This document shows positions 1 to 18,039 of a stretch of 64,000 nucleotides of DNA, in pieces. The notes beneath the pieces are model-generated. The model did not search any database and had not been told where the DNA came from. It saw only the letters and a program-made list of their open reading frames with translations. The stretch spans positions 1-64,000 of the forward strand of contig JBDRPD010000066.1 in NCBI GenBank assembly GCA_043827405.1. The letters are read 5' to 3'. This DNA is from Elusimicrobiota bacterium. Its GTDB lineage: Bacteria; Elusimicrobiota; Elusimicrobia; UBA1565. Both the position numbers and the translations under genes were made by a program. The number at the start of each line of letters is the position of its first letter. The first letter of the stretch is position 1.

Positions 1-1
1 A

Positions 2-389: not shown

Positions 390-1173
390 GAAAAGCGAAT
401 CGTCTCGGAGCAAGCTCAATAACCTGCTAACCTGTTGGCCGAAAGGGACCGTAGCGGTTCAGGCGTGGCTGCGAAAGCAGGGCATATCCAGGCAGCTCGC
501 GGAGAAATACCGCCGCTCGAATTGGATACAGCGGATAGGGCGAGGAGCATACACCAGGGCTGGGGACAAAGCAGAGCTATTCGGAGCAGTGTACACCCTC
601 CAGTCCCAACTTAATTTGCCCGTCCATGTCGGGGCGAAGACCGCGTTGGAACTCCAGGGATACGCGCATTTTCTGCCGATGAAGGGATTGCCGCTCGTAC
701 ATCTATACGGGCGTCCCGGCCGGCCCTTGCCGGCCTGGTTTCGAGGTTGCGATTGGGATTCGCGCGTCCGCTATCATTTGGTCCAGCTCTTTCGGGGCAA
801 GCCCGATGCCGGACTGACGAGCAAGCCGCAGGGAGAATACACGGTACGCATGTCCGCTCCGGAACGGGCCGCGTTGGAGCTGGCCGAACTCGTTCCCTCC
901 GAGCAGTCATTTGAAGGAGCCCGGCTGCTGATGGAGAGTCTCACGACGCTTCGCCCCGATCTCGTTCAGGAGTTACTGGAGACTTGCCGGTCGGTCAAAG
1001 CGAAGCGGCTGTTTCTCTTTCTGGCGGAGGCCTGCGGGCATCAGTGGATGAAGCGGCTCGATCTGCAAAAAGTGGATCTCGGTCGCGGCAACCGGCTTAT
1101 AGTCCGCCACGGCCGCTTGGACTCAAAATACCAGATAACGGTGCCGGTGGAAACGCCGCAAGAGGTGCCATGA
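388..1173 (+). CDS. abiEi: Type IV TA system AbiEi-family antitoxin
   Basis: N-terminal wHTH (W..RIGRGAY), SAPERAALE and KAKRLFLFLAE..H.W motifs; ATGA-coupled to the AbiEii gene. Confidence 0.88.
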   Translation: MKSESSRSKLNNLLTCWPKGTVAVQAWLRKQGISRQLAEKYRRSNWIQRIGRGAYTRAGDKAELFGAVYTLQSQLNLPVHVGAKTALELQGYAHFLPMKGLPLVHLYGRPGRPLPAWFRGCDWDSRVRYHLVQLFRGKPDAGLTSKPQGEYTVRMSAPERAALELAELVPSEQSFEGARLLMESLTTLRPDLVQELLETCRSVKAKRLFLFLAEACGHQWMKRLDLQKVDLGRGNRLIVRHGRLDSKYQITVPVETPQEVP

Positions 1174-2078
1174 GAAGTCCTTTCCTTGAACAGTCGGTAC
1201 TGATGCTGCGCGTGATGCCGCACGTTGCCGCCGAAGAGTGCTTCGCTCTTAAAGGCGGAACGGCGATCAACTTCTTCGTCCGCGACATGCCGCGGTTGTC
1301 GGTGGATATCGACTTGACATATCTGCCCATCGAACCCCGCGAGGTGAGCCTGACCAAGATCGGGAATGCGCTGGATCGGATCAAGTCCAAGATCATCGAA
1401 ACCGTGTCCGGGACGACGGTACAGGAAGGCCGCTACGAGAACAGGACTTCGAAGCTCTTCGTGCGGGGAACTGACGGCGAGATCAAGATCGAACCGAACT
1501 TCGTGCTCCGTGGATCGGTGCATCCGCCCATCGAGCGCGACCTATGTCCGGCGGCTCAAGCTCGGTTTGAAGTCGCCGTCCGCATCCGAGTCCTTTCGGA
1601 CGCGGACCTGTACGGCGGAAAACTCTGCGCCGCCTTGGACCGCCAGCATCCGCGCGACCTCTTCGACGTGAAGGTGCTTTTAGAGGACGAGGGTATCACA
1701 CCGGAGATTCGGAAGTCCTTTCTCGTCTATCTTATCAGTCACGACAGACCCATGCACGAGGTCATCGATCCGACACGGAAGGACCAAAAGGCGGTGTTCG
1801 ACGCTGACTTCCAGGGGATGTCGGCTGAGATCGTGGAGTATCAAGAGTTGCTTGATGCCCGCGAGAGTCTTATCGAACAGCTCCATGCCGGTCTCACGGC
1901 CGACGAGAAAAACTTTCTCGTCTCGGTGAAGGAGGGCAAACCTGTCTGGCCGCTCCTTGGGCTGGATGGCGTCGAGAAGATGCCCGCAGTTCGGTGGAAG
2001 CTCCAGAATATTGCGAAGATGGATGAACGCAAGCATAAGGAGCAGCTTGATAACCTCAAGCAGAAGCTCGGGCTGTAG
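1170..2078 (+). CDS. abiEii: Type IV TA system AbiEii-family nucleotidyltransferase toxin
   Basis: FALKGGTAINFF..RLSVDIDL and GKLCAALDRQHPRDLFD motifs; start moved to ATG 1170 (ATGA overlap). Confidence 0.92.
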   Translation: MRSPFLEQSVLMLRVMPHVAAEECFALKGGTAINFFVRDMPRLSVDIDLTYLPIEPREVSLTKIGNALDRIKSKIIETVSGTTVQEGRYENRTSKLFVRGTDGEIKIEPNFVLRGSVHPPIERDLCPAAQARFEVAVRIRVLSDADLYGGKLCAALDRQHPRDLFDVKVLLEDEGITPEIRKSFLVYLISHDRPMHEVIDPTRKDQKAVFDADFQGMSAEIVEYQELLDARESLIEQLHAGLTADEKNFLVSVKEGKPVWPLLGLDGVEKMPAVRWKLQNIAKMDERKHKEQLDNLKQKLGL

Positions 2079-2115
2079 AGAGGCTGCCTGGCCTTCAAGT
2101 CATCGGCGTTGTCTA

Positions 2116-2237
2116 GCGCGGCTGAGCCGATTTTGCTGTGCTAGGTTTTGTTTGACTCCTATCGGCGGATTATCCAGCAGCGCGGTAAACTCCCCCTGAA
2201 ACGCGAGCGCAAACTGATCGCGCTCGCGCAGAAAGGC
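2116..2237 (+). repeat. Imperfect ~122-bp direct repeat, copy 1 (downstream of TA module 1)
   Basis: Shares CGATTTTGCTGTGCTAGGTTTTGTT, CCCCTGAAACGCGAGCGCAA and CTCGCGCAGAAAGGC with 3680-3801. Confidence 0.9.
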
Positions 2238-2339
2238 ATATTGTCGGCTCAGGAAGAACTGCTCCTCCACCTGGTCGGGTTCATGGTGTTTCGGATTATG
2301 CCCAGACTGCCACAAAAACTGGATGAGAGACTGGGGTAG
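2148..2339 (+). pseudogene. Truncated ORF resembling a sigma-70-type factor N-terminus (region 1.2/2.1)
   Basis: LPLKRERKLIALAQKG..SAQEELLLHLVGF resembles the L..EEE..L..AQ.G...A.E.L pattern; only 63 aa. Confidence 0.4.
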
Positions 2340-2349
2340 GGTCAGGGGC

Positions 2350-2385
2350 TTGACAAAATCTATTAATTGCATAATAATATGCAAT
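2350..2385 (+). promoter_or_regulatory. Sigma70 promoter with overlapping palindromic operator
   Basis: TTGACA at 2350-2355; ATTGCATA-ATAA-TATGCAAT (2366-2385) covers the -10 region. Confidence 0.65.
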
Positions 2386-2414
2386 ATATTGTACGTTAAT
2401 ATACAAATTGTTGT

Positions 2415-2990
2415 ATGAACAAGTATCGAGTCGATAAAGCATGGTTGTGGGCCGTTTTAGGGGAATGGGACAAGTACGTTCCCAAAAAGGTCCGCTTGGT
2501 TGCCTGCGGCGGGACGGCGCTGACGCTGCAGGATCTAAAGGAGTCCACGAAGGATATCGATTTCCTGATCCCGGATGATGATGAGTATAGGACGCTGATT
2601 CTGACGCTGCGCAAGCTCGGCTATAAGCAGGTAGGCGGGTTCAAGTGGGCGGGGAGCGACGGCTTTACGTTCGACTTCTTCTCCGGCAAGCAGATTTTCA
2701 CTACTGAGCTGCTGGAGTCGTCGCTGGAAGAAGGGAACAATATCCCCATTCGCCAGCTAAAGCGGATTTACGTGGGCGCACTCAACGACTATGACTTCAT
2801 CATCTCGAAGATGTTCCGCGGGACCGCGGTGGACGAAGAGGATTGTCTGCGGCTCATTAGGGCCAGGGGGAAGGAACTGAGTCTGGCGAGGCTGAAGGAA
2901 AGATATTTGGAGAACGCACAGTACACGTTGAAGCCAAAGGACATGGAATATAATCTCGAAAGTTTGCTGGACAAGTTGGGGGCTGGATGA
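2415..2990 (+). CDS. Nucleotidyltransferase (DUF6036/AbiEii-like), putative toxin
   Basis: ACGGTAL...TKDIDF (GG..DxD) and IISK.FRG...DEED motifs. Confidence 0.75.
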   Translation: MNKYRVDKAWLWAVLGEWDKYVPKKVRLVACGGTALTLQDLKESTKDIDFLIPDDDEYRTLILTLRKLGYKQVGGFKWAGSDGFTFDFFSGKQIFTTELLESSLEEGNNIPIRQLKRIYVGALNDYDFIISKMFRGTAVDEEDCLRLIRARGKELSLARLKERYLENAQYTLKPKDMEYNLESLLDKLGAG

Positions 2991-3673
2991 AAAGGGGGGA
3001 CGCCGCGCATCTGCTGTCCGCCTTGGCCGAGTACGGCTACTCGCTGCTTAGTCCGGAAGCGACGCCTGATCCGAACGATGTGCTGGCGCGGATGACGCGG
3101 AGTCGCGACACGCGGGTCCTCGAAGGATTTCCCGTTGTCCTGGTAAACGCATCGGACAGGCATCCGAACAGCGTGGACCTGGAGCGTGCTGAGTCGCTTT
3201 TGAAGAATGAGGTCGGGCGCGCGAAGTTCCGCCAACTGGTCATGCTGGCGGCGCTCCTTTGCGAGGGGCGTGACGAGTCCTTGGCTTGGCTGGTGAAGAA
3301 GCCGAAATGGCTGAAGGAGACCGCGCTGAAGAAGCTCCGCGGTCCGCTGGCGCGCAACGAACCGCTGGTGTTGACGGACGGCATGAAGCTCGACCCGGAG
3401 CGGCTGAAGAATACGTTTTTTGAGTATGCCCGTGGCGGCCGCGCGGCGGAACAGTCGGAGGCGGATAAGTCGCGCCTTGGCGAAGAGATGCGAAAGGAGT
3501 ATTACCTTTCCCTGCTGCTTACGCCGAGGCAGAAGGAACTGCTCCATAAGAAGCTTCGCGGCGAAAAAATGAGCAAGACGGAGCGGGAGTATTTCTCGCG
3601 CGTCGTCAAGAAGAAGCTGCGGGCCCTGGCCGATCCGGATCTCCATCGGCTGGCGCAGAAGGCGTTGCAGTAG
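2987..3673 (+). CDS. Putative partner/antitoxin with C-terminal HTH-like region
   Basis: ATGA-coupled to the NTase; C-terminal LTPRQKELL..K..GE.MSKTEREYFSRVVKKKL. Confidence 0.55.
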   Translation: MKRGDAAHLLSALAEYGYSLLSPEATPDPNDVLARMTRSRDTRVLEGFPVVLVNASDRHPNSVDLERAESLLKNEVGRAKFRQLVMLAALLCEGRDESLAWLVKKPKWLKETALKKLRGPLARNEPLVLTDGMKLDPERLKNTFFEYARGGRAAEQSEADKSRLGEEMRKEYYLSLLLTPRQKELLHKKLRGEKMSKTEREYFSRVVKKKLRALADPDLHRLAQKALQ

Positions 3674-3679
3674 GACTTG

Positions 3680-3801
3680 GCGCGGCAAAGTCGATTTTGC
3701 TGTGCTAGGTTTTGTTCGCAGCCTATCGCTGGATAATCCAAGAACGCGGCAAGCTTCCCCTGAAACGCGAGCGCAAGCTGATCTCCCTCGCGCAGAAAGG
3801 C
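3680..3801 (+). repeat. Imperfect ~122-bp direct repeat, copy 2 (downstream of TA module 2)
   Basis: Aligns without gaps to 2116-2237; encodes LFAAYRWIIQERGKLPLKRERKLISLAQKG, then an early stop. Confidence 0.9.
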
Positions 3802-4113
3802 TATTCAGGCCTATGACTTGAGATTCAAAAAACAAGTGCGGGGAGCGGCAGTCGCTGCATCTCAGCACCTGCATGTGGGAAGGAGCCTCAGGTTTGATAT
3901 TCGGCTGCGCGCGAACGCGCAAAGAGGTCTGCTTCTCGGATCTGCCGGTTCGTCAAGCGGATAAATTCATGCAGCAGTTTGGGAGAATCCCCTCATGAGT
4001 CGTCCTTGAGCTTTATTTGAGCCTCCCCTGAGCTGTGTCTCCCATACTGATACCAGGACGAGTGCGCTCCGTTTCTGACGGAAGCGTGATGCCGGTACCT
4101 CGGAGGCCGTGAG

Positions 4114-4697
4114 ATGATGGGTGTTATCTGCGATATTCTGGTCGGGTTTATTGAGAAGAATTCCGATGAGGCGACCGTCGAGAAAATCAAGAGCCGTGCC
4201 GGGATGCCGGGCAGGAGCTTCGCCTGGCATGAAATCGTCAAAGAAGAGGACTGGCAGCGGTTGCTGAAGGCCGCAGGGGAGGAGCTGGGCGTCGAGGCTT
4301 CCGTCGCTGAGCAGATGTTCGCGGAGCATTCCATCGGCATCCTAACGGACAAGTTCGGGAGCTTCTTCAGAATATCCAGTACGCCGCTCGACCTCCTGCG
4401 TAAAGTCGCCAAGATACACCTTGATTTCCCAAGCTCCATGGGTATGCGGACCCGAAAGAAGCTCGAGCTCGCGGTCGATGCGCCGGACAGGCTCATCTAC
4501 CACTACCGCTCGCCAAACCGTCTTTGCGTGTTCTTGAAAGCCCTGGCCGTCAAGGTCTTCGAGCACTATGGGGAGAACCAATACGCCATCACTGAGACCC
4601 AGTGCATGAAGGAAGGAGCTGAGTGGTGCGAGATTGTCATGAGCGTGGAGCGGGTCGCGAACCAGCGGAAGCGGCCGGAGACTCCGGCCGAGATGTC

Positions 4698-4701
<4 letters not shown>
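4114..4701 (+). CDS. H-NOX (heme NO/O2-binding)/V4R-type sensor protein
   Basis: MMG.I...L..F start, proximal His (KIHL), HYRSPNRL (YxSxR variant), C-terminal C...G...C. Confidence 0.75.
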
Positions 4702-6176
<1,475 letters not shown>

Positions 6177-6337
6177 ACTCAAAGCGTCGTTAATCCGGCT
6201 ATTTGCAGACGCGCAGGACCGCATCACGAGTTCGCTTTCCTGGCGGACTTTTTGAGGGAACTGGAAGGCAGGGCAAAAGAAAAAGTGATGAAAAAATCAG
6301 CGCTTACCTGGGGCGAAGGGGCTTAAAAACTTCTCCC

Positions 6338-6378
6338 GGTTATGAGCCTTGCGAGCTACCAGGCTGCTCTACCCCGCA
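6338..6378 (-). tRNA. tRNA-fMet(CAT) 5' half only, copy 1 (att-site fragment)
   Basis: Minus strand TGCGGGGTAGAGCAGCCTGGTAGCTCGCAAGGCTCATAACC: acceptor 5' strand, D arm and anticodon CAT; no T arm follows. Confidence 0.88.
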
Positions 6379-6382
6379 CTTC

Positions 6383-6411
6383 AGTGTAGCATGTGGGGGT
6401 TGCGATTACAA
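6383..6411 (-). promoter_or_regulatory. Sigma70 promoter of tRNA fragment 1
   Basis: TTGTAA-17 bp-TACACT with extended TG, 4 nt before tRNA position 1. Confidence 0.7.
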
Positions 6412-6648
6412 TAGTCGTCGAGAACTTCGAGAAAATAAGGAGATACGAGGAGCGAGTCAGGCGGCTTCTTTTTTCTTAGGGGACTGGGGTTGATGGGGTG
6501 ACACGGGCTCGGATTCGGATTTGTGACCAGAACGTGACCAACTCTTCTCTAGCTTGCTGGCCGCGCTCCGCAGGTGTTCGGGACCGCCTTTACCGACCCC
6601 CAAAAAAACTGGCGTGCCGCGTCTGTCTCGGTCCTGCGGGTTGGTATC

Positions 6649-7179
6649 CTACCAACTGGACCAAAGTTTGTCGGAGTACTTGTATCCCGGCCGGTACCAC
6701 CAGGGGTAGCCGTCCAAAGCGACCCGGTGAGTGCAGTCCACGAAGAACTCCCCATGGCAGAGACTGCCCGGCACCCAAATGTATCCCCAACCGCCGGTGT
6801 CCTGCAGCTTGCCGCTGTTCTCACTTGTGGGGCAGACCTCTCCGCCATAGACAACGACCTCTGAGTGCCGTCCGTGATCGAGAGTCTCGGCGCTTGGCAG
6901 GCTGTTTAGAAGGTTCTCTTGTATCAGTTGTTCGATCTGTCGGGGGTATTCTCCGTTGTGGTTCTCATTATATTGGGATAGCGCCGACCGGATGGCTCCC
7001 AGATTGCCGCTGTTTCGTGCCCGCGCACGCTTGGCCGGATGGATTTCGGATGGCGCGAACGGGTTGAAAAGCGCCGCTAATATGAGCCCGGCGGAGACCA
7101 GTAGGATCGTCGTGAGACAGCCGCACCCGCTTCGTTTCTCCGGGCCTTCCGGCTGTGTCGCGGAGTCGCGGGCGGTCAT
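6649..7179 (-). CDS. Pilin/pseudopilin-like protein without a prepilin cleavage motif
   Basis: TM segment, then GNLGAIRSAL..Y.....G.YP, DTGGWGY and VDCTH, matching the pilin at 35274. Confidence 0.65.
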   Translation of the reverse strand: MTARDSATQPEGPEKRSGCGCLTTILLVSAGLILAALFNPFAPSEIHPAKRARARNSGNLGAIRSALSQYNENHNGEYPRQIEQLIQENLLNSLPSAETLDHGRHSEVVVYGGEVCPTSENSGKLQDTGGWGYIWVPGSLCHGEFFVDCTHRVALDGYPWWYRPGYKYSDKLWSSW

Positions 7180-8654
7180 GGGTTTCTTGAAGTCCGATCG
7201 GAGCTATTTTTCTTGAGTGTCGTTGCTCCGGCCGCGGTCGTCCTGTAGCGTTGGAGGCGGCTTCGGGGTTTCTCGGGGATGGTCGGCACGATCAGTCCGG
7301 CGGTCAATAGGGGACCCAGCACCCCCTCGCGAAACTTGGTGCGGTCGGAACGCCTCAGGAGTTTCATGATTTCCACGAGCGGACGCGGATGCTTACAGAA
7401 ATCCAGAATCCTGACTTGGTGCCGACTTAGTGCCGACTTGGTGCCTTGCGAGGCACCAAGTCGCCCCGGCGGCACATGGCCGGGGGTCAGGGGCAGCGCG
7501 AAGGTCACGGAGAAAAAGAGGTCAGACTCGAACACGGGCGGCTTGAGGCGGGCTTCCGCGACGGCGGTGCGGATGCGCTGAATACCGGTTCCCGCCTTTT
7601 CCACCTCGCCGAGACGCATGAAGAGGTCGGCGATCAGGGGGTTGCGGGGCAGGCTGCGGCGGCCAAGGGTCTTGAGGCTCAGGCCGGGGACGAGGCCGCC
7701 GGGATTGCTGATCTCGAGCCGGTCTCGGAACAGCTCCACCATCACGGTGCCTCCCCGCTCGAAGTAGTCCCTATGGATGACAGCGTTGAGCAAGGCCTCG
7801 CGAGCGGCTGCCTTCGGGACGGCTGAAATCTCCTTGCGCTTGAGGCCGGTGATCTCGTAGCGAAGCGGCAGGTTGCGCTGGAGGAATGTCATGGCACCGT
7901 CGACGTTCTCCGCGATGGTGCCGTCGAAGTCTTTGCGATCGAGGATGCGGGCCTTGTCCGTCCCCTGAAAAAGAAGACAGGTGATCCGTGACTGGATATG
8001 GAACAGGCGGGGTTTCTTCGCGAAGAAAAGCACGCCGGCGTTGTTGAGACGGAGGGATTTCCCTTGGCGTCTGGCCGCTGCGATATTGACCAGCAGGTCC
8101 TCGCGCGACAGATTCGCTCTTGTGACGTTGGCCTCTGAGAGGAATTGATTAAAGGCGCGGGGGCTGAAGTCGGCGGGATACCGAAAATCCGCGCACGGAG
8201 TCTCATCGAAGCGGGCATCTCCCTGGGCCCGGACGAAGCGAAGCAGTTCGTCACGGCTCATCTTCTGGGTGTTGGGCCCCGAACGCAGGAAGTAGCCAGC
8301 CGCGCAACCGTAGGGTTTGCGGACGCCTTCGGGGACATCGACAGTCAGGAGGTCCCGTTTCTGGTGCTTGAAAGGGATCAACTCCACGGTCACGGGCGGG
8401 TCGCAGTGGCGTGCCATATCCTGGACACGGGAGAGCAGCTTGTTGTCGATCACGATTCCTTTGACGGTTTTGGCGTCCGTCACTCCGATGTAGACGCGCC
8501 CGCCCCCCGAATTGGCGAAGGCCACCAACTCGCGGGTCAGAGAATCAGAGACGGACTCCTTGAACTCGACGAATTGGCCCTCCCATGCCGCCAAGGTCAT
8601 GGCGAACTCGGAAGCGGCGGGTGGGCGTATTTTCTTTGTGCGCGCGCGGGGCAT
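7176..8654 (-). CDS. Schlafen/AlbA_2 domain + HATPase_c_4-like domain + C-terminal wHTH
   Basis: EGQFVEFKE..ELVAFANSGGGRVYIGVTD; REALLNAVIHRDY, SNPGG, RNPLIA, EKAGTG; TIPEKPRSRLQRY. Confidence 0.88.
   Translation of the reverse strand: MPRARTKKIRPPAASEFAMTLAAWEGQFVEFKESVSDSLTRELVAFANSGGGRVYIGVTDAKTVKGIVIDNKLLSRVQDMARHCDPPVTVELIPFKHQKRDLLTVDVPEGVRKPYGCAAGYFLRSGPNTQKMSRDELLRFVRAQGDARFDETPCADFRYPADFSPRAFNQFLSEANVTRANLSREDLLVNIAAARRQGKSLRLNNAGVLFFAKKPRLFHIQSRITCLLFQGTDKARILDRKDFDGTIAENVDGAMTFLQRNLPLRYEITGLKRKEISAVPKAAAREALLNAVIHRDYFERGGTVMVELFRDRLEISNPGGLVPGLSLKTLGRRSLPRNPLIADLFMRLGEVEKAGTGIQRIRTAVAEARLKPPVFESDLFFSVTFALPLTPGHVPPGRLGASQGTKSALSRHQVRILDFCKHPRPLVEIMKLLRRSDRTKFREGVLGPLLTAGLIVPTIPEKPRSRLQRYRTTAAGATTLKKNSSDRTSRNP
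7413..7463. repeat. Three tandem 11-mers plus one inverted copy inside the Schlafen gene linker
   Basis: GACTT(G/A)GTGCC x3 at 7413-7445; 13-bp perfect inverted repeat at 7434-7463. Confidence 0.85.
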
Positions 8655-8847
8655 GTTCTAACCGGTTTTAAGGCATCATATCATAATGGGTTTTCGGCCC
8701 CGAATATGGGACGGTCGACCTGTGCCCATTTTGTGCCCAACGCAGTCAATAAACAACGATCTCTGTCAAAGTTGGGGAGGGGGGAAGATGGGGTTTTATC
8801 GACGGGAACAATCTCCGTCAATGGGCATAAAAAAAGACTCATAGTGA

Positions 8848-8886
8848 TTATGAGCCTTGCGAGCTACCAGGCTACTCTACCCCGAA
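8848..8886 (-). tRNA. tRNA-fMet 5' half, copy 2 (att-site fragment, 2 substitutions)
   Basis: 39 nt matching copy 1, ending at anticodon loop CTCATAA. Confidence 0.85.
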
Positions 8887-8890
8887 CTTC

Positions 8891-8919
8891 ATAGTAGCAT
8901 TTAGCGGGGGGGGCTTCAA
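8891..8919 (-). promoter_or_regulatory. Sigma70 promoter of tRNA fragment 2
   Basis: TTGAAG-17 bp-TACTAT with extended TG; same spacing to the tRNA as in copy 1. Confidence 0.65.
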
Positions 8920-9140
8920 GCTTCGACGAGAAACGTGTGAGATTACTCGCCGAATATCTCAGCAGTTCGGGCTTCCGGTAGGCGAAAGCGTCAGAGGCGG
9001 GACTCGTTTTGGGACTCGCCCGGAATCCGCTGATCTTGACAGCCCTAGAAGGACCGATATCCTGATAAGATGCCGCGCCGGTTGCTTGCGGCCGGGAGAG
9101 AATGCGGTTAAAATAAGCGGGTTGTGATAGCTTCATTTTA

Positions 9141-9860
9141 ATGGACACTCCTGAAGATAATATTTTCGCCGAGGCCGTTCGCCGGTACAACCGGAAGCTC
9201 GTGATCTGGAACCTGCCGATCCTGCTCTACTTCGCCGCGGTCATCATCGCGTCGCGGCTGGGCTTTGACTTCGATAAGGCCGTGCAGTCCGGGAACTGGC
9301 TGCTCGCGGTTTTTATGGGAGGGGGCTTCCTTCTGGGGATCCCGGCGCTCTTCGCCTGCTGGAATATGGTCAAGTGGATCAGGCGGACGATGAACCCCGA
9401 ATGCCATCCGAGCTTCGCGCCCTTTTGGGAAGGAGGAGCGCTGGCCGGCGAGATCGCGGCGGCGAGCGCGGCGCTGGCCGATGGACCTTTTATCACCGAA
9501 TCGGATTACCTGAAGATCACCGACGAGTGGATCGGGGTGTTCGCCAAATGGGGTTTCGAGGTGTACCGCCTGGATGACGTCGTCTGGATCTACTCCACGC
9601 TGAGCTCTGAATCCGTGAACATGATCGAAGTGTCCAGCGAGGAAGGATTCGCCATGCGTACCAAGCAGGGCGGCGAGATCCCGATCACCGTCTCCTCCGG
9701 CGCCGAGGCCAAGCAGATCCTCGTCGCCATCGCTGAGCGGATCCCTTGGGTCGCGCAGGGGTACGCGCCCGAACTTGTGGAGATGTGGGAGCTGCGGCGG
9801 CAGCAGTTTCTCGGCTGGGTGGAGCGGCGGCGCGAGGACCCGGGGGCGGAGCCGGCCTAG
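9141..9860 (+). CDS. Membrane protein (2 TM + soluble domain, DUF6709-like)
   Basis: Two hydrophobic helices; DVVWIY and PWVAQGY..EL..MW motifs. Confidence 0.5.
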   Translation: MDTPEDNIFAEAVRRYNRKLVIWNLPILLYFAAVIIASRLGFDFDKAVQSGNWLLAVFMGGGFLLGIPALFACWNMVKWIRRTMNPECHPSFAPFWEGGALAGEIAAASAALADGPFITESDYLKITDEWIGVFAKWGFEVYRLDDVVWIYSTLSSESVNMIEVSSEEGFAMRTKQGGEIPITVSSGAEAKQILVAIAERIPWVAQGYAPELVEMWELRRQQFLGWVERRREDPGAEPA

Positions 9861-9864
9861 TCTG

Positions 9865-10896
9865 TCAGCGCCCTAGGCAGTTGGCGGCTTCCCGGAAGCC
9901 CTTTTCGTTGGCCTCGTTGATGGTCTTGACCTGGCCGCGGTAGAAGCTGGCGGCTTCCTTCACTTTCGCCTTGGCGCTGTCGAAGTCCTTCGTCAGCCTG
10001 CCGTTGGCGAACAGCTTTACGGCCCAGCTTCTGTTTTCCTTGTCGACCCGCTTTCTGAAGTCGTTTAGCATCTTATTGAGGTCGCAGTTTTTGTCCTCTA
10101 GGCACCGTTCGAACTCGGCGTAGTCGTGGCCCGCTTGCTCGATACGTTCCCTGTCCTTCTTCAGCCTCTCGTAGAGTTCGGCGTACTGCTGCTGGCTCTT
10201 GACGTTTTTCCAGGCGTTGTAGCTGGCGTCTTTGTACAGGTTGGCGGTGAAGCTGTATGCTTTGTTTTCAGCGGCCTTATGGGCGTCGCGGATGGTCTGC
10301 TCTGAATACTGGAGGGCGTTGGTGCAGGCTGGCGACGGCTGCCAGGTGTCCTCCAATGAGTCCAGGCCGTCGTCTTCCCAGGAGTCCAAGGCGTTGTCCA
10401 CCTTGTCATCCGCCCGCCGCTCCTTTTCGGCCTGGCCCTTGGCGTACTCCTTCGCCGCGAGCTCGCGTTCGAGGCGCTGCTGCTCGGCCGCCATATTCCG
10501 CTCGAACTCCGCGCGCTCCCGCGCCTCTTGCTTGCGGCGCTTCTTATCGGCATCGCCGCCGAACTGGCTTTGGTACCAGCCCATGGTGGTGTTCATGACG
10601 GCCGCACCCCTGGCGGCGTCGCGGGATGCGGCGCCGGAGCCGGATGAGCCGGAGCCGCGGCTTTGGGGCGCCGCGCCGTAGGCCGTGCAGGCTCCGGCGC
10701 TCCAGCCGTAGCGCTCCCTTTCCCAGGTGGCGATGGCTTTCTGGCGGTCGGCGCTGCAGGCGTTCATCGACGCATAGCAGCGGTGGTTGGCGTTTCTGAA
10801 GGCGGCGCTTTTGACGATATAGCTGAAGCAGTAGCTGGCGGCGTGGACCGGCGGGGCGGCGAGGAGTGCGGCGAGTATCGGGCCGAAGCGGCGCAT
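9865..10896 (-). CDS. Secreted hypothetical protein with coiled coil and Cys pairs
   Basis: Signal peptide MRRFGPILAALLAAPPVHA from ATG 10896; TTGCAT-17-TACACT promoter directly upstream. Confidence 0.65.
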   Translation of the reverse strand: MRRFGPILAALLAAPPVHAASYCFSYIVKSAAFRNANHRCYASMNACSADRQKAIATWERERYGWSAGACTAYGAAPQSRGSGSSGSGAASRDAARGAAVMNTTMGWYQSQFGGDADKKRRKQEARERAEFERNMAAEQQRLERELAAKEYAKGQAEKERRADDKVDNALDSWEDDGLDSLEDTWQPSPACTNALQYSEQTIRDAHKAAENKAYSFTANLYKDASYNAWKNVKSQQQYAELYERLKKDRERIEQAGHDYAEFERCLEDKNCDLNKMLNDFRKRVDKENRSWAVKLFANGRLTKDFDSAKAKVKEAASFYRGQVKTINEANEKGFREAANCLGR

Positions 10897-10988
10897 CTTA
10901 CACAGTGTAGCTCCGGAATTTTTGAGATGCAAGTATTTCCCTTGCCGTTTTAGGTAGGATAAAATGCCGGCTGTTTCGGAGGACCGAT

Positions 10989-12518
10989 ATGGCTAGATTC
11001 CTGTTTGTCCCTTTAATCGTATCCCTGGCGACCGCCGCGTTCGCCGCATCGGGCAAGGTCTACTTCGACCAGGCTTTCAAGCATATGATGAAGGGCGAGC
11101 ATCTCGATGCGATCCGGCTCTATCGTAAGGGCTTGGCTCTTGAGCCCGATAGAGAGTTCTATATCGGCTACCTCGGCGATTCGTATATGGAACTCGGTTG
11201 CTACAGCCAAGCCTTGGCGCAGTATGAAAAGCGGCTCAAGCTCGAGACGCATGAGACCATCCTGAGTCAGGTCGGGCATGCGATGACTGCGTTAAAAAGG
11301 TATTCGGAAGCTTTGGAGTATTACCGTAAGGCTGCTATGCTGGATCCGAAGAGCTATTTATATGCGTTTAGGGCGGCCGGGGCGCTCGATCACCTCGGGA
11401 GGAAGGAGGAGGCGCGCAAGGTCCTGGAGGATTTTAAGAAGACCGAAACGGGTGAGTCCAAGGTGGCCTACTACCTCGAACGGATGGATAAGGGGCAGGC
11501 GGTCGACTACTTCGATCCAGACGCCAAAAAGTGTCCCCTTCCAGCCGACGGAACCGTACCCGCAGGGATGTCTTCTGCGAGCGCGATCAAGCCGCCGCCG
11601 GATCAGCTGAAGGCTTCGCCGAAAGACGCGAAGAAGGCCGCCCAGTACTACGAGAAAGGAATGAATATCCGCAAGATCGCGATCAAGAAGAATAAGTGGA
11701 AGAAGAACAGGGACGCGGCCAAATTATTCGGCAAGGCGTTGGCGCTCGATCCCGGCAATACGACGTATCTGCGTATTCATGCGGTCACGCTCGACGACGG
11801 CGCTGAGCCCCAGGCGGCGCGTGATGCTTACGCACGGGCCCTCCCGTACTTTCAGAAGGACTTTTTCTTCCAGCAGTCCGCCGGGAAGAGTTTCCTTGAA
11901 GGGGCAAGGTACAGTTCGAAGGAGCAAAAGGAGAAGTATTCTGCTCTTGCCGCGTCGTGCTATGCGCGCGTGACCACGCTTTCCAAGGCGGGTGAGCAGG
12001 ATTACATCAATCTGGGGGTGGCGTTGGAATGGCAAGGCGAGGATCTTAACGCCTTGGAGGCGTATGAAAAGGCTTATCCTTTGTCCCGGGATCAAAGAAC
12101 CGTCGGCCAGTGGATCGACAAGCTGCGCCGCAAACTCGGGATGTCGACCCGCGCCCAGGACGCGGCCAAGGTCCGTACCGAGAAGAAGGCCGCCGCCGCC
12201 CGCCAGTCTGAAGATGCTTGCCGCCGCGTCAAGGGCTCGGGCAGCGTCTCCGCCGATGCGAGAACACGCGCCAGCCGCGCCAGGGGCTTGATGAAGGCCC
12301 GAAAGTACGATGAGGCCGACGCCATCCTCAAGGACCTGGTAAAGGAAGAGTCCGGCTACGCCAAGGCCCGCTTCTTCTACGCGGTGTTAAACGGCCGCCT
12401 CGAACGCTACGCGAAGGCCATTGAGGAGATGAGGTGCTACCTCATCCTCGAACCCGACGCCAAGAACAAGCAGGTGGCGCAGGACAATATCGACACGTGG
12501 AAGGCCGCGGCCGAATAG
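10989..12518 (+). CDS. Secreted tetratricopeptide-repeat protein
   Basis: Signal peptide ending AAFA; multiple A...Y.KAL.L.P TPR motifs. Confidence 0.8.
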   Translation: MARFLFVPLIVSLATAAFAASGKVYFDQAFKHMMKGEHLDAIRLYRKGLALEPDREFYIGYLGDSYMELGCYSQALAQYEKRLKLETHETILSQVGHAMTALKRYSEALEYYRKAAMLDPKSYLYAFRAAGALDHLGRKEEARKVLEDFKKTETGESKVAYYLERMDKGQAVDYFDPDAKKCPLPADGTVPAGMSSASAIKPPPDQLKASPKDAKKAAQYYEKGMNIRKIAIKKNKWKKNRDAAKLFGKALALDPGNTTYLRIHAVTLDDGAEPQAARDAYARALPYFQKDFFFQQSAGKSFLEGARYSSKEQKEKYSALAASCYARVTTLSKAGEQDYINLGVALEWQGEDLNALEAYEKAYPLSRDQRTVGQWIDKLRRKLGMSTRAQDAAKVRTEKKAAAARQSEDACRRVKGSGSVSADARTRASRARGLMKARKYDEADAILKDLVKEESGYAKARFFYAVLNGRLERYAKAIEEMRCYLILEPDAKNKQVAQDNIDTWKAAAE

Positions 12519-12601
12519 GTCCGCGAGTCTTTCGGGACTCGTCCCGGGACTCGCCTGCCCCCGTCCCCTCCAGACCAAAAGAAACCGGGCTAGAGTCCTG
12601 A

Positions 12602-12640
12602 TTATGAGCCTTGCGAGCTACCAGGCTGATCTACCCCGCA
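12602..12640 (-). tRNA. tRNA-fMet 5' half, copy 3 (probable original chromosomal junction, 1 substitution)
   Basis: 39 nt matching copy 1, ending at CTCATAA; lies 9 nt after the stop of the caspase-family gene. Confidence 0.85.
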
Positions 12641-12649
12641 CTGCCCGAA

Positions 12650-14599
12650 CTAGTAGCGAAGAACCAGGGGCCAATCCAGATGCGGGGAAGCTCCCGCCCG
12701 GGAAGGCATCAGCGTCGGAGTCTGGTCGCGGTTTAATTCCAATGACGCGGTTTCGGAAACATTGGAGCGTACGTACTGGAAGAGTTCAGCCAAGGAAATC
12801 GAACGGTCACGGTTCGTATCGGACGGTCCGCGCATGCCTTTGAGAAGATAATACGTGAACAGGCCGTGCTCCACCTTGTCGTAATCAGAGCTGATCTCTC
12901 TCCCCGAAGAGGCGGTTAGAATCACTAGGTCGTCTCCTTCCGGCGGCGGCATAACCGTAGTCACCAACGGCCTGCCGCCCCGTTTCGTGATGCCTCGTCC
13001 CTGCGTTCCGGAGAAGCAGCTGTCGAGCATCACCACGGTCCGCTTGGCTTTGAGTTTCTTGAGGGAGGAATAGAGGCGCTTGAGGGGGAATAGCTTGGCG
13101 GCAAAATCCGGATGCCCCTCATAGGGGACCAGATAAGCCTCTTTCCCTAGAGGGTCCGGAGCTCCGTGTCCGGCATAGTAAAAGTAAACGTTGGAGTCTT
13201 CCTTTACGCGTCTGACGAGCCAATCTTCAAGGTAGGCTTCCAGGTCGCTTTTCGTCGCCATGTCGTCGGTAAGGAGTTTGATATTGGCTTGAGGAACGCC
13301 CAGCACGTTTTCAAAGTAGCGGGCCACCGTCTCGGCGTCCCGCGTCGCGTACTTAACGGCCGGTATAAACTTTTCCCGATAGCTGCCGATGCCGACGACT
13401 AGCGCCGCATCGTTGGGCCGCGGGGTGCTCCTGCTCTTGGGCGGGATGTCATCTACGCTGATCTCGGAGAGGATGTCCTCCGCGGCCTTTACCGCGCCGG
13501 ATCGCATCGCTACTTTCAGGATCTTGGCCGCGGCCAGGACCTTCTTGTGTCCGACGAGGACCTCTATCCGGAGACTGGCGTCTTCGGCGGGGATATTTTC
13601 GGCCAGCCGCCCGCGAAAAATTACGCTGCCGGAGCCTTTAGGCGGGACGCCCCCGAGCTCCCGGCTGTCGCCGAATGCCGCCGTCAGCTCAGGTGTCCCG
13701 GAAAGTGCGATTCGAACATTCTCCGCGGCGATGCCGCCCTTATTATCAACGAATGCCTTTAGGACCACTTCCTCGCCGGCCTCCAGGATCATATCGCCGT
13801 TCGCATCTTCCAGTTGCGTGCGCAGCGCAAGAACGGGAAATTCGGAGAGTGTCTCCTCCTCCACCGTGACGAGCGGAGGCGGCGCAGGCTCGGCCGCCAC
13901 GGGAATGGGTGCGGGCTCGGGCGGCGCGGGTGGCGGGACCTGCGGCTTCGCCTTCGGCGTGGGGGCGCGGGGCGGTGGAGGCGAGAACTCCGCCCGGAGA
14001 TAGCCCCGGCCGCCGCCGAAAGTAAGACCGGCGAAGCGGGTGGCGAAATGCGCGGTGAACGACTCGTTCGCGAAGTCAAACGAATCAATGCGCATCTCAA
14101 ACTTTACGACATGAGGGACTACGAGCCAGGTACAGTAAAATTTCCCATCAAGCCGAATGTCCGTCGGTGAATGAACCTTGAGTACGGCGGTGCCGTTGGT
14201 GCAGGCATCCGGGATGAAGAGCACGGTCGACCAGGGGCGCAGTGCGAGCTTGATCTCGGATTTCTCCCGGTCGATATACAGTACGTCAGCGATGCGAAGA
14301 GAGGAAATCTTCCCCGGGAGCGGGGGTAGGCTGGTCAGGACCCAGAAGCGCACCCCGCGCCACCCTCGCGTGCGCGTCTTGGGTTTTGAACGGTAAAACT
14401 GAATTTCCGACATCTTATGCGAGCGAAAAAGCTTATAGATGCGGGTTAGGAGCTGCTCCTTGGAGCTCGCTGGCGAGCAGACTCCTTGGTCGCAAAGGGA
14501 GACCTCCGCGACCTTGACATGCTTGATGGAACATCCGGTCAAACAGAGCAGGGCCAGGAGCGGCAGGGCAAAGAAGAGAGGTGCGCGAGAACTCCGCAT
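12650..14599 (-). CDS. Lipoprotein with Pro-rich linker, CARDB-like domain and C-terminal caspase-like (C14) domain
   Basis: Lipobox LTGC after ATG 14599; YYAGHG and LDSCFSG catalytic dyad; HGLFTYYLLKG; QTP. Confidence 0.85.
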   Translation of the reverse strand: MRSSRAPLFFALPLLALLCLTGCSIKHVKVAEVSLCDQGVCSPASSKEQLLTRIYKLFRSHKMSEIQFYRSKPKTRTRGWRGVRFWVLTSLPPLPGKISSLRIADVLYIDREKSEIKLALRPWSTVLFIPDACTNGTAVLKVHSPTDIRLDGKFYCTWLVVPHVVKFEMRIDSFDFANESFTAHFATRFAGLTFGGGRGYLRAEFSPPPPRAPTPKAKPQVPPPAPPEPAPIPVAAEPAPPPLVTVEEETLSEFPVLALRTQLEDANGDMILEAGEEVVLKAFVDNKGGIAAENVRIALSGTPELTAAFGDSRELGGVPPKGSGSVIFRGRLAENIPAEDASLRIEVLVGHKKVLAAAKILKVAMRSGAVKAAEDILSEISVDDIPPKSRSTPRPNDAALVVGIGSYREKFIPAVKYATRDAETVARYFENVLGVPQANIKLLTDDMATKSDLEAYLEDWLVRRVKEDSNVYFYYAGHGAPDPLGKEAYLVPYEGHPDFAAKLFPLKRLYSSLKKLKAKRTVVMLDSCFSGTQGRGITKRGGRPLVTTVMPPPEGDDLVILTASSGREISSDYDKVEHGLFTYYLLKGMRGPSDTNRDRSISLAELFQYVRSNVSETASLELNRDQTPTLMPSRAGASPHLDWPLVLRY

Positions 14600-14696
14600 A
14601 TCAGGATGATACAAATTACTAGAGAAACCGGAATTTTGCGTTAAATCGAAGTTCCATACCCGGCCCAGAATCGCTAGAATAGTCATCTAATCAACC

Positions 14697-15962
14697 ATGG
14701 CCCAGCAACCGCCCAACGTTTTTCAGAACCCCGAGATCGTCAAGCGCCTGCTGTTAACCTTGGGCTGCGTCACGGTCTATATCATCGGCCGCAGCATCCC
14801 GCTCCCCGGCCTGCATCCCGGCTATCTCGCGGCGATACTGTCCGGCGCGTCCGAGACGCCGCTGCGCTCGGTTTCGATCTTCGGGCTCGGCGTCGCCCCG
14901 TACCTGGGCGCCGCGGTGCTGCTTTCGCTGCTGCGCGCGACCGGCCGCATCGAGGCGCTGGCGGGACGGGACGCCGAGGGGCGGCGCGGCATCTACCGGG
15001 CCGCGCGCCTGCTCGCCGCGGTCTTCGCCGTCGGCCATGCGGCGCTGCTGACGATCGGCATAGCGGGCGCGCCGGCCGCGACACTTGAGACGGGCCTGCG
15101 CTTTTTCGTGCCGGCGGCCGCGACGCTTGCCGCCGGGGCGATGCTTGTCCTCTGGCTGGCCGAGGAGATCTCGGAGAATGGGGTCGGCAGCGGCGTGCTG
15201 CTCATGCTTTTTGTCGATATCGCCGCCAAGGCCCCGGGGGGTATCGCGACGCTCAATACGCTCGTCAAAAACGAGGACATCGGGATGCCGGCCGCCCTGG
15301 GGATCGCGGCGCTGGTTCTGCTGGCCCTTTACGCCGCGGTCTTCATCGAATCGGCCCAGCGGAAGATCCCCGTGCAGTACGCCAAGCGCGTCATCGGCCG
15401 GATGATGGTCGGCGGCCAGCAGACGACCGTTCCCGTCAAGGTGAATCCCGCGGGAGTGCTGGCGCTTATCGCCGCGGCGACCGTCGCCGCCTGGCCGGCG
15501 GCGCTGTCCGCGGCGCTGCGCCATCCGGCCTTCTATTTCCCGCTGTTCGCGGCGCTCGTCGTTGTTTTCAGCCGGCTCTATCGGACTTCCGGCGTCGACC
15601 CCCGCGAGCTTACCGGCCAGATCCAGCACAACGGAGGCTTCATCCTCGGCATCCGTTCGGGCGACGCCATGGTCGGGTACTTCTCCCGGCTGCTTGAACG
15701 GCTTTCGCTGAGCAGCGCTATTCCCGTCGCCGCGGTCGCCGTCGTGCCGGCGGCCGCGCTGCGCCTGACCGGTTCCTCGGCGGCGCTCGGCGAGGTCTCG
15801 ATCTATTTGCTGGCGGCGGTGGCGCTCGATTTCGTCGGGCAGGTGCAGGCCCGCGCCATGATGCAGAACCTCGGCGGCAGCCTGCCCAAGCCCGGAAGCA
15901 TGAAAAGCGGCGGCCAGCGTCAGCGGCCGCGTTCGTCGAAGCGCCGCAAGAAGCGGCGATGA
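14697..15962 (+). CDS. secY: Divergent stand-alone SecY paralogue
   Basis: IPLPG, SIFGLGVAPY, WLAEEISENGVGSGV, QRKIPVQYAKR, PVKVNPAGV, GGFILGIRSG; no ribosomal protein genes nearby. Confidence 0.8.
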   Translation: MAQQPPNVFQNPEIVKRLLLTLGCVTVYIIGRSIPLPGLHPGYLAAILSGASETPLRSVSIFGLGVAPYLGAAVLLSLLRATGRIEALAGRDAEGRRGIYRAARLLAAVFAVGHAALLTIGIAGAPAATLETGLRFFVPAAATLAAGAMLVLWLAEEISENGVGSGVLLMLFVDIAAKAPGGIATLNTLVKNEDIGMPAALGIAALVLLALYAAVFIESAQRKIPVQYAKRVIGRMMVGGQQTTVPVKVNPAGVLALIAAATVAAWPAALSAALRHPAFYFPLFAALVVVFSRLYRTSGVDPRELTGQIQHNGGFILGIRSGDAMVGYFSRLLERLSLSSAIPVAAVAVVPAAALRLTGSSAALGEVSIYLLAAVALDFVGQVQARAMMQNLGGSLPKPGSMKSGGQRQRPRSSKRRKKRR

Positions 15963-16142
15963 GCGCCGCGTATTTTTGACGCGCCGGGCGCAATAAGGTA
16001 CTCTGTATACGACATCCGTTTCCTGCCTGCCCCATTCATTACCAAAAGGCGAAAACGCATCACCCTGGACGCGATTGTGCGCCCAATGGATGAAAGCGGG
16101 GATTGACGTTCCCTGAAGGTGCCAGTATCAGCGGAGCAGGTT

Positions 16143-16286
16143 ATGAAAATACAGTGCGAAGCTACCACCCTTGCCTCTACGTATTCGGACGCTCACCGGT
16201 GTTGCATGAAAATAGGGATTAAGAAGGTCGGGAAGAAGCATCTCTGTGTTCATCATCAGAATATGGCGGCTAGAAAGCGGCTATAA
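16143..16286 (+). CDS. 47-aa Cys/His small protein (putative zinc finger)
   Basis: MKIQCEATTLASTYSDAHRCCMKIGIKKVGKKHLCVHHQNMAARKRL; GGAG/AGG RBS upstream; below the ORF-track cutoff. Confidence 0.55.
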   Translation: MKIQCEATTLASTYSDAHRCCMKIGIKKVGKKHLCVHHQNMAARKRL

Positions 16287-16330
16287 ATTTCGTGTATTGA
16301 CGTTCTCCCGCAGTTCATCTATTCTTCCTA

Positions 16331-17251
16331 ATGGCTCGACGAACCATGCCCGTCTGGATGGCGCTTCCTCTGCGGGTGCTGCTGACCGCGCTGGGCTTAT
16401 TCGCCTCCTTCCTGCCGCGTTCCGTCGAGGTATTCTGCGGCCCCTTGCTCGGGCGCCTGGCGCTGTCGTTTGCGGGCAAGCGGCGGCGTACCGCCGAGGA
16501 GAATATCCGCCGCTGTCTCCCCGAACTGAGCGCAGGCGAGCGGCATAAGCTGTTGTGGAAGAACTGCGAGCATTGGGGGATGATCGGTTTTGAGTTTATG
16601 CACCTGTTCTCCCCGCTTCCCGGCCACTTCGCCCGCTACGTGAAGAAGAACTCCGTGCTGCACGACTTCGCGAATTGGCAGAAAGCCCATGCCAAGGGGA
16701 AGGGCGCTATCATTGTGGGCTGCCATGCCGGGAACTGGGAGGTGGCCTCGGCCGCCGGGGCATTGGCGGGAATGCCCTTCATGATCGTCACCCGATCCCT
16801 CACGCCGGAATGGCTGATGAAAAAGATCGAGTCGTCCCGCCTGCAGGCGGGCCTGCGCGCCGTGTATCAGCCGCGCACTTTGCCGGCGCTGCTCCGCGCC
16901 CTGAGGAAGGGGGAGACCGTGGGCTTTGTCATCGACCAATACGCCGCGCCCCCCATGGGCGTTAAAGCGCGCTTCTTCGGCTACAGCGTTGACACCCTCG
17001 GGGCGGTCGGACCGCTGGCGAGCCGCACGGGCGCGGCCGTGGTACCGACGCACAATTTTCGCGACGCGAAAGGCATCTTCCATGTCTACCTGGAGCCGGA
17101 GATCGAGTTCGGCGATGCGAAGGGGGATCAGCGGAAAACCACGCAGCTACTGGCCGACATGGTCGAGAAGCAGGTGAGAAACAACCCGGCGCAATGGCTG
17201 TGGGGCCACCGCCGCTTCAAGAATGTCGATTTCTCCGATCGCCGGACCTGA
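16331..17251 (+). CDS. Lipid A late acyltransferase family (LpxL/HtrB-like)
   Basis: HAGNWE, VIDQ, RFFG and PAQWLWGHRRFK motifs. Confidence 0.88.
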   Translation: MARRTMPVWMALPLRVLLTALGLFASFLPRSVEVFCGPLLGRLALSFAGKRRRTAEENIRRCLPELSAGERHKLLWKNCEHWGMIGFEFMHLFSPLPGHFARYVKKNSVLHDFANWQKAHAKGKGAIIVGCHAGNWEVASAAGALAGMPFMIVTRSLTPEWLMKKIESSRLQAGLRAVYQPRTLPALLRALRKGETVGFVIDQYAAPPMGVKARFFGYSVDTLGAVGPLASRTGAAVVPTHNFRDAKGIFHVYLEPEIEFGDAKGDQRKTTQLLADMVEKQVRNNPAQWLWGHRRFKNVDFSDRRT

Positions 17252-17253
17252 CG

Positions 17254-17955
17254 CTAGGAGGTCGGGGCCGCTGAGCGCCGGGCGAGCCATATTACATGCT
17301 CGTCTCCCGGTTCGTTGGGCGCGATGCTCACGCGTACCTGGCGCACGCCGCGAAATCCTGTCTTTTTGAGGCGCATGTAAAAAGCGGGATCGCGAAACGA
17401 CGACCACACCGTCAGGATGCCGCCGGGCTTAAGCGCCGTATGGGCGGAGTCCAGCCCTTCCTCGGTGTAGAGCCAGTCGTTGCCGCCGCGCGTCAGCCCC
17501 TCCGGCCCATTGTCGACATCGAGCAGGATCACGTCGTATTCCTCGAGCTCCGTCTGCAGCAGCCGCGCGACGTCTGTCCGCTTGACGTCTACGCGCTGGT
17601 CGTCAAGCGGGTGCCCGGCCAAATGCGCCAGCGGGCCGCGGTTCCAGGCGATGACCTCGGGTATTAATTCGGCGACGCTTATGCGTCCGCCTTCGGGAAG
17701 GCAGCGCAGCGCGGCGGCCAGGGTGTAGCCCATGCCGAGACCGCCGATCAGAACATGCGGCCGCGGGTTGAGCGCCGGGTCCTCAAGCGCCAGGCGCGCG
17801 AGCTCATCTTCGGACTCATGCGCGTGGCTGCTCATGAGTTCGGTGTTTTCGATCCAGATGGAAAACTGCTCGCCGAGCTGGTACAGCGTCAGCTTGCCGC
17901 CGCCGCTGGGCACGCGCGTGGCCGCAACGATATCCCAATCGGACATGAATCCCAT
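17254..17955 (-). CDS. Spermidine synthase-like SAM-dependent methyltransferase
   Basis: ELMSS..H.SE, VLIGGLGMGYTL, LLDVDNGP. Confidence 0.8.
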   Translation of the reverse strand: MGFMSDWDIVAATRVPSGGGKLTLYQLGEQFSIWIENTELMSSHAHESEDELARLALEDPALNPRPHVLIGGLGMGYTLAAALRCLPEGGRISVAELIPEVIAWNRGPLAHLAGHPLDDQRVDVKRTDVARLLQTELEEYDVILLDVDNGPEGLTRGGNDWLYTEEGLDSAHTALKPGGILTVWSSFRDPAFYMRLKKTGFRGVRQVRVSIAPNEPGDEHVIWLARRSAAPTS

Positions 17956-18039
17956 TAGGTGACCGCGAAATAAGGGGAAGCCGTGATTTTAAACATGGGC
18001 GACGGTTCGATCTTACAATATGCTCGAACGGAAGCGGTG

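Follow-up and report, generated by a model that had tools for sequence, protein, structure and literature searches.

The question raised by the DNA analysed here is how an initiator tRNA gene comes to be preceded, in one orientation, by three copies of its own 5' half with kilobases of other genes between them. The stretch comprises the first 64,000 nt of contig JBDRPD010000066.1 (Elusimicrobiota bacterium, assembly GCA_043827405.1) and is called the window throughout. The genome that carries it (G000; 4.33-Mb assembly, 98% complete) was compared with the genomes (G) and loci (L) of relatives; contigs of G000 are given C-numbers, the window being the start of C66. A sequence-only reading of the window had proposed that successive elements, each bringing a replacement promoter and a tRNA 5' half, had inserted at one site in the tRNA-fMet gene to give an integron-like stack of integrase-less cassettes. 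The mechanism came out largely as proposed there, but decayed elements, originating from more than one integrase type, account for the array better than a cassette system does: probably, three separately acquired tyrosine-integrase elements were stacked at the anticodon loop of tRNA-fMet, each with a promoter and a 5' half, and the outer two are likely integrase-stripped relics.

The three minus-strand halves noticed in that reading are present with zero, two and one substitutions, respectively:

6338 to 6378, minus strand: tRNA-fMet 5' half copy 1, identical to the intact gene at 41 of 41 positions; crossover loop at 6346-6340.
8848 to 8886, minus strand: tRNA-fMet 5' half copy 2, matching tRNA positions 1-39 with two substitutions.
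12602 to 12640, minus strand: tRNA-fMet 5' half copy 3, matching tRNA positions 1-39 with one substitution; no clear promoter before it.

All three stop at the anticodon loop CTCATAA (copy 1 runs 2 nt further), and every junction maps to this loop, where the crossover had been placed from the sequence alone. The blastn E-values of copies 1, 2 and 3 against the 4.33-Mb genome are 7e-17, 4e-12 and 2e-13, and the spacings between the halves are 2508 and 3754 nt.

The intact minus-strand tRNA-fMet predicted to the left of the window, past an integrase, was located on contig C39. The end of C39 and the start of the window overlap by 141 identical nt, no other 141-nt partner exists for either contig end, and the join places an intact tRNA-Met(CAT) (C39 c166777-166852, minus strand) at window positions -911 to -836, that is, 836-911 nt to the left of the window. 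The same join completes a 309-aa tyrosine integrase that lies head-to-head with the tRNA gene, its start (C39 166961) being about 108 nt away and the two genes divergent. Contigs of run X1, a separate assembly possibly from the source sample and hence not independent biology, extend past position 1 by 866 nt on the left, as far as the tRNA, and depart from the window's sequence at four places; they tile window positions 1-17500 at a depth of 14-17, with a single contig (5.2 kb) covering 7416-12659 and thus copy 2. The stretch is present in one DNA sequencing run, with a small share in two further runs, and no RNA run containing it was found among the runs listed. Three CAT tRNAs were found in the genome; that on C39 is the one with initiator features (A11:U24 and an fMet-like 5' sequence), has two, not three, G:C pairs above the loop, and is the sole initiator-tRNA gene detected in the assembly. 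ARAGORN returned no tRNA over the window, and an Rfam scan of positions 1-20000 gave three matches only, all at chance level. With units numbered outward from the intact gene, so that unit 1 is innermost and unit 3 outermost, the array runs: tRNA, unit 1 (7.2 kb, with the integrase), half 1, unit 2 (2.5 kb), half 2, unit 3 (3.75 kb), half 3.

Unit 1 is the integrase-bearing member, with the following features inside the window:

2 to 202, plus strand: 3' end of the 309-aa tyrosine integrase (SAM-like domain and PF00589; R157, K181, H249-x-x-R252, H275, Y284).
388 to 2078, plus strand: AbiEi/AbiEii type IV toxin-antitoxin pair, unit 1 cargo (Pfam, PADLOC).
2415 to 3673, plus strand: DUF6036 nucleotidyltransferase and a 228-aa partner, unit 1 cargo.
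4114 to 6176, plus strand: HNOB/V4R sensor and hybrid histidine kinase, unit 1 cargo.
6228 to 6339, minus strand: distal (P') arm of unit 1; junction CCGGGAGAA, with AAGCGCTG at +41 and AAAGCGAACT at +108 from the loop.

The integrase scores 125 bits against PF00589 and stays under the cut-offs for XerC, XerD and IntI (for the IntI model TIGR02249, 63.8 bits against a cut-off of 265). It clusters with tRNA-adjacent integrases, separate from two Xer-like proteins of the genome, and its nearest relatives are from Elusimicrobia/Elusimicrobiota. The distal arm keeps the register of related elements, and the terminator hairpin found at that place is degraded in unit 1. An intact tRNA, a displaced 5' fragment upstream in the same orientation and a tyrosine integrase between the two agree with unit 1 being a tRNA-targeted island of the 5'-fragment type, predicted to be still excisable. 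The DUF6036/228-aa pair recurs (59%/49%) in locus L004, behind a deleted integrase upstream of tRNA-fMet. A 122-nt direct repeat (84%) stands at 2116-2237, after the AbiE pair, and at 3680-3801, after the nucleotidyltransferase pair.

Units 2 and 3 are smaller, and their features, with open reading frame abbreviated to ORF, are:

6379 to 6430, minus strand: predicted promoter arm of unit 2 (TTGTAA ... TGCTACACT, plus a TCGWCGAGA motif; by eye).
6523 to 6540, minus strand: proximal arm-type pair of unit 2, TGGTCAC-N4-TGGTCAC.
6649 to 8654, minus strand: unit 2 cargo, a 176-aa ORF without a family match and a 492-aa Schlafen/AlbA_2-RecG_C-Fic-like_C protein.
8721 to 8739, minus strand: distal arm-type pair of unit 2, TGGGCAC-N4-TGGGCAC.
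8834 to 8858, minus strand: terminator-like 10-bp hairpin with a T run, spanning the junction of copy 2 and the unit 2 arm (z -2.25).
8887 to 8935, minus strand: predicted promoter arm of unit 3 (TTGAAG ... TGCTACTAT, plus a TCGWCGAGA motif; by eye).
8999 to 9018, minus strand: proximal arm-type pair of unit 3, CGAGTCCC-N4-CGAGTCCC.
9141 to 12518: unit 3 cargo, a DUF6709 protein (plus strand), a 355-aa ORF without a family match (minus strand) and a TPR protein (plus strand).
12534 to 12553, minus strand: distal arm-type pair of unit 3, CGAGTCCC-N4-CGAGTCCC.

The claim that these segments of about 2.5 and 3.7 kb hold only cargo was borne out: no recombinase was found with Pfam or in a six-frame integrase search, and Pfam detected no relaxase among the five main ORFs. 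Being flanked by attachment (att) sites, in tandem with an integrase-bearing element and devoid of recombination and transfer genes, both units resemble, in these respects, cis-mobilizable elements (CIMEs). The paired repeats are probably arm-type integrase sites, judging from their position and from lambda-type att structure. Throughout G000, all eight TGGNCAC-N4-TGGNCAC pairs are at most 170 nt away from a tRNA 5' end or a 5' half; two of them are in unit 2, and the others include those of intact-integrase elements at tRNA-Met(e) and tRNA-Thr(TGT). CGAGTCCC pairs occur in G000 only twice, both times in unit 3. At up to one mismatch, this pair was found in 6 of the 101 genomes of the order-level search (G000 and 100 others), and the three perfect pairs outside G000 lie by an fMet gene (G006), by an fMet 5' fragment (G016) and in one case by no tRNA fragment (G003). 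Units 2 and 3 have unlike arm repeats, and neither type matches the arms of unit 1, which argues against mobilisation in cis by the neighbouring element; both units are predicted to derive from a different, arm-binding integrase type and not to be movable by the unit 1 integrase. Locus L175, in which an xis-like gene and a 377-aa integrase are directed at an fMet 5' half and the promoter end (TGCTA..TGAAGT) is that of units 2 and 3, likely represents their parent layout at fMet.

The replacement promoters that had been postulated stood in part. Sigma70-like -35/extended -10 elements precede the C39 gene and the copies at 6378 and 8886, all read by eye, the two inside the window not having been listed by a consensus scanner; before half 3, none is clear. 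There, the stop codon of a caspase ORF lies 10 nt from the half, so that, with no clear promoter either, the original host flank is not preserved at this end. The hairpin at 8834-8858 is predicted to stop read-through from the displaced promoter.

Observed directly are the intact gene, the divergent integrase, the three halves ending at the loop and the unit-specific arm repeats. The scheme built on them is as follows: A circular element, the attP of which contains a promoter and a tRNA 5' half, would cross over within the 7-nt loop, and its insertion would rebuild the tRNA gene under the element's promoter while the prior promoter and 5' half are displaced outward. Because of this outward displacement at each insertion, the order would be from newest (unit 1) to oldest (unit 3). 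The promoter arm of the innermost unit would drive the sole initiator-tRNA gene found and could thus not be lost, whereas the integrase could be. Loss of the integrase would fix the cargo in place and leave a tidy integrase-less segment with both arms, and the next insertion would release the old half to drift.

Relatives of the array present integrase loss at several stages. Integrases at least 60% identical to the 309-aa enzyme are divergent from and upstream of tRNA-fMet whenever the contig includes the tRNA. Among 18 distinct fMet promoter arms with the unit 1 leader RAGTTCGCAAG, the next integrase is intact in six, frameshifted or interrupted in three and deleted in nine (one of these nine with only 400 nt of flank); many of the loci were found via the integrase, which biases the count toward intact cases, and some frameshifts may be assembly errors. 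Breakpoints vary: before the start, after about seven codons, at residues about 54-120, or near the last 35 codons. Of fMet 5' units with both ends seen (n=11: the three of the G000 array, G049, G034, G046, two in G016, G241, G252 and L175), three have an intact integrase and eight have none. In G000 itself, the 5' units at tRNA-Val, tRNA-Leu and tRNA-Thr(CGT) are also without an integrase, and the integrase of the tRNA-Ser(TGA) unit is truncated. AAAGCGAACT is conserved at +107/108 from the loop in unit 1 and in nine of twelve displaced halves of relatives (the misses being two G016 copies and one variant in G237), usually preceded by an AAGCGCT hairpin with a T run, and is absent from units 2 and 3. 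Retention of the promoter arm while it drives the tRNA, next to an unprotected integrase gene, would be the simplest explanation of the frequent integrase loss. The content of the locus is variable among relatives, as had been anticipated: in G003, where lpxL is 85% identical, tRNA, integrase and lpxL lie inside 3.4 kb, compared with 17.2 kb from tRNA to lpxL in G000. No conserved host gene upstream of tRNA-fMet was found across the relatives; the locus can be recognised in G003 and G016 by lpxL/speE, but both genes have paralogues in G000 and may be old cargo. Two integrase-less 5' units (L034:10015-11807 and tRNA-Leu on G000:C107/C55) have a promoter region that repeats outer upstream sequence over 45 nt and about 270 nt, respectively, which suggests that duplication or conversion acted in addition to site-specific insertion.

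Several points weigh against reading units 2 and 3 as relics of stacked elements. No integrase remnant was detected in either unit or out to window position 20 kb (six-frame hmmsearch --max, E<=1), and a search of the 101 genomes with the L175 integrase at E<=1e-40, a strict threshold run without a positive control, gave no match; with neither a stump nor an integrase-bearing parent, the decay of these two units is deduced from units elsewhere. In units 2 and 3, neither an arm nor a cargo ORF is damaged, which would hold also for a working non-autonomous element, and several integrase-less units of relatives are innermost (L034, L032, L175, L246, L250), while a 743-bp unit occurs twice in G016. 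The exact junction of units 2 and 3 was found in none of the 100 other genomes of the order and gave no match in a metagenome pattern search. The substitutions in copies 1-3 (0, 2, 1) do not rise steadily outward, and the promoters and the terminator in the array are predictions. No true empty site was found in the genomes searched, which include none of the same genus. Circular and empty-site forms had been put forward as a check by the sequence-only reading; neither was seen among the joints and loose ends listed for contigs of four runs, a weak test in that contigs lose rare forms, and no joint skipping a unit was present in these contigs, which is not proof of absence.

The intact arms and missing integrase traces are also what speaks for units 2 and 3 being maintained non-autonomous satellite cassettes, mobilised in trans by integrases that bind their arms and are encoded at other loci, for instance the TGGNCAC family at tRNA-Met(e) and tRNA-Thr; the arm motif of unit 2 is common to two intact integrases in G000, and the preponderance of integrase-less units at fMet (8/11, several innermost) as well as the duplicated 743-bp unit of G016 agree with this. 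The TGGNCAC integrases sit, however, at other tRNAs with other core sequences, and an integrase with CGAGTCCC arms was found neither in G000 nor in 99 family loci. Elements of the unit 1 type show scattered deletion breakpoints, typical of decay, and the G016 duplicate includes the next, diverged half, so that duplication by homologous recombination fits better. By our arithmetic, a drift of about 4%, as in the halves, would leave 32 arm bases unchanged in roughly one case out of four; intact arms are therefore no sign of selection, and satellites are considered an unlikely explanation. Rather improbable, too, is the broader proposal of a family-wide default of 5'-side, promoter-swapping integration together with a stock of minimal cassettes, each made up of cargo, arm repeats and a promoter with the tRNA 5' half, that arm-binding integrases with the matching arm motif would move in trans; if true, this would be a distributed, tRNA-based form of gene capture, in which each cassette becomes indispensable via takeover of an essential tRNA's promoter.

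An integron has one integrase beside an ordered row of integrase-less segments, and the array resembles this in having a single integrase and several att-bounded, integrase-less segments in one orientation. For the resident 309-aa integrase to be the collector of cassettes sharing one recombination site, it would have to remain in place; instead, it sits inside the innermost unit with that unit's own two arms, and a new insertion would push it outward. The enzyme is not IntI, most relatives lack its gene or have it deleted or frameshifted, and cassette ends are of more than one type, units 2 and 3 carrying other arm types than unit 1. Unit boundaries are tRNA halves with three arm types, and IntI, attC, a fixed attI platform and a common cassette site are all missing, which makes an integron-like platform very improbable; the integron-like label of the sequence-only reading is not supported. 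Hardly credible is an origin of the halves by local duplication or misassembly. Longer host-like upstream repeats, of 45 nt (L034) and about 270 nt (the G000 tRNA-Leu unit), do exist in two other units, a sign that loci of this sort undergo duplication, but all copies in the array break off at the anticodon loop and give way to unrelated sequence, arms and an integrase are present, and the 5.2-kb contig of the separate assembly covers copy 2 at even depth. Stacking of three elements with subsequent loss of the outer integrases remains the preferred explanation.

The side of the tRNA on which this stack grew is not peculiar to fMet in this genome. Among 16 displaced tRNA fragments in G000, eleven are 5' halves at nine tRNA genes and five are 3' fragments (a doubtful Ser-like 5' match at C50:47381 was excluded from the eleven), and each of the five integrases that lie upstream of a tRNA is accompanied by a displaced 5' half that matches. 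Beyond the array, eight further displaced 5' halves were noted: Met-e (C84:1424), Ser-TGA (C25:38541), Val-CAC (C50:174837), Leu-TAA (C107:24077), Thr-CGT (C66:91085), Thr-TGT (C50:6940), Tyr (C39:1000) and Ser-GCT (C99:16317); most of these units have paired arm repeats at both ends. A family survey of 16 other genomes gave 99 loci around 119 PF00589 hits, 20 of them near a tRNA or fragment; judged from geometry alone, the integrase overlaps or lies within about 160 nt of the tRNA 5' end in twelve, lies within 170 nt of the 3' end in four, and is farther off or ambiguous in four. Three further PF00589 hits in loci already covered comprise one 5', one 3' and one without a tRNA. At class level (301 genomes), an fMet 5' match was found in 234 genomes, with two or more in 13, some of which reflect a second intact gene (G085, G108), and three or more in two; G000 has the most, with four.

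In a 40-row tree, the fMet integrases of upstream type (n=7, one of them of unknown context; support 91/99) and those of downstream type (n=20; 100/99) form sister clades, joined at 96/95; since the tree was midpoint-rooted with frameshifted copies excluded, no direction of change is claimed. The sister clades are about 50-57% identical and act on opposite sides of the anticodon loop, and in L041 and L052 both types flank the same tRNA-fMet. A third related integrase clade was seen inside fMet 5' islands with no tRNA fragment adjoining (L036, L038, L042, L077, L172). On the 3' side of the G000 tRNA-fMet itself, a 4-kb integrase-less unit (G000:C39:162760-166777) is bounded by a 27-nt displaced 3' fragment.

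Comparable systems were sought in the literature, and the comparisons below are with the excerpts available of each source. Streptococcal CIMEs (1.2-13 kb, a range that includes the sizes of units 2 and 3) occupy the places most remote from the target gene, in the order CIME-CIME-IME (integrative and mobilizable element)-target; like units 2 and 3, they are small, cargo-only, att-bounded units behind an integrase-bearing element, the most reduced outermost (PMC7563491). The stack thus follows known CIME-type accretion, but on the rarer 5' side of the tRNA. In the Islander collection, 159 of 3919 islands (4%) are of the 5'-fragment kind and, like unit 1, have a tyrosine integrase, an anticodon-centred crossover and a displaced 5' fragment upstream; its four tandems of three or more need an integrase per member, whereas two of the three members here have none (PMC4383910). 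5' fragments are the majority in G000 and a minority in Islander, the method and taxon sample of which differ from those of the present count (PMC4383910). In pTN3-like archaeal elements, a tRNA 5' half serves as attB, and transcription of the rebuilt tRNA starts from a promoter that the element brings, an arrangement described as seldom found in bacteria; their att sits within the integrase gene, whereas in unit 1 an uninterrupted integrase gene points away from the tRNA (PMC8371274). Polar stacks at one stable-RNA gene, with older members pushed outward and many members without integration genes, are described, as here, for Dehalococcoides ssrA islands (15 without integration modules; PMC3146451) and Prochlorococcus tycheposons (bioRxiv 10.1101/2020.12.28.424599). 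Unlike the array, the ssrA islands are found on the downstream side of their gene and depend on serine recombinases (PMC3146451), and no description of promoter replacement was found in the excerpts on either system (PMC3146451; bioRxiv 10.1101/2020.12.28.424599). No report of 5'-side islands in Elusimicrobiota was found in the literature searched, the scope of which ended short of subscription journals and supplements.

The usual arrangement, in which the tRNA 3' end is rebuilt and the host promoter kept (96% of Islander islands), thus looks reversed in this lineage, and tools that scan only downstream of tRNAs, or require an integrase, will miss most of its islands. The two-sided sister integrases, at times within one genome, offer a compact system for asking what determines on which side an element integrates, and whether cargo can be stabilised, with no toxin involved, by an element that provides an essential gene's promoter.

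Beyond half 3, the window continues with one further segment:

12650 to 15962: caspase-domain gene and a second, divergent secY; absent between tRNA and lpxL in G003.

This segment is likely older island material, and the island likely continues to about 16 kb. The second secY copy (14697-15962) is 33% identical to that on C60.

The palindrome TCTCGWCGAGA stands 40-50 nt from many tRNA promoters and att junctions, including window positions 6412-6424 and 8920-8932 and C39:166889-166901; nine of its 195 sites fall within the 0.6% of the genome near tRNAs or fragments, and it is possibly the site of a host architectural factor. Its core TCGWCGAGA was considered as a LexA box and rejected, being missing upstream of recA, where a TGTACA palindrome stands instead. 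Palindromes containing TGTACA overlap the promoters of recA (G000:C7) and of one lexA (G000:C87) and are a candidate LexA box of the lineage.

Upstream of tRNA-Met(e) on G000:C8 (46397-47509), an integrase ORF continues across the tRNA 5' half, its stop codon coming shortly after the anticodon loop. In the predicted circular form, this integrase would be 21 residues longer, reminiscent of enzymes with att within int. Genes resembling those of a type IV secretion system come after it, suggesting that the element belongs to the integrative and conjugative elements. Integrase ORFs overlapping tRNAs were also seen in L320, L334 and L335.

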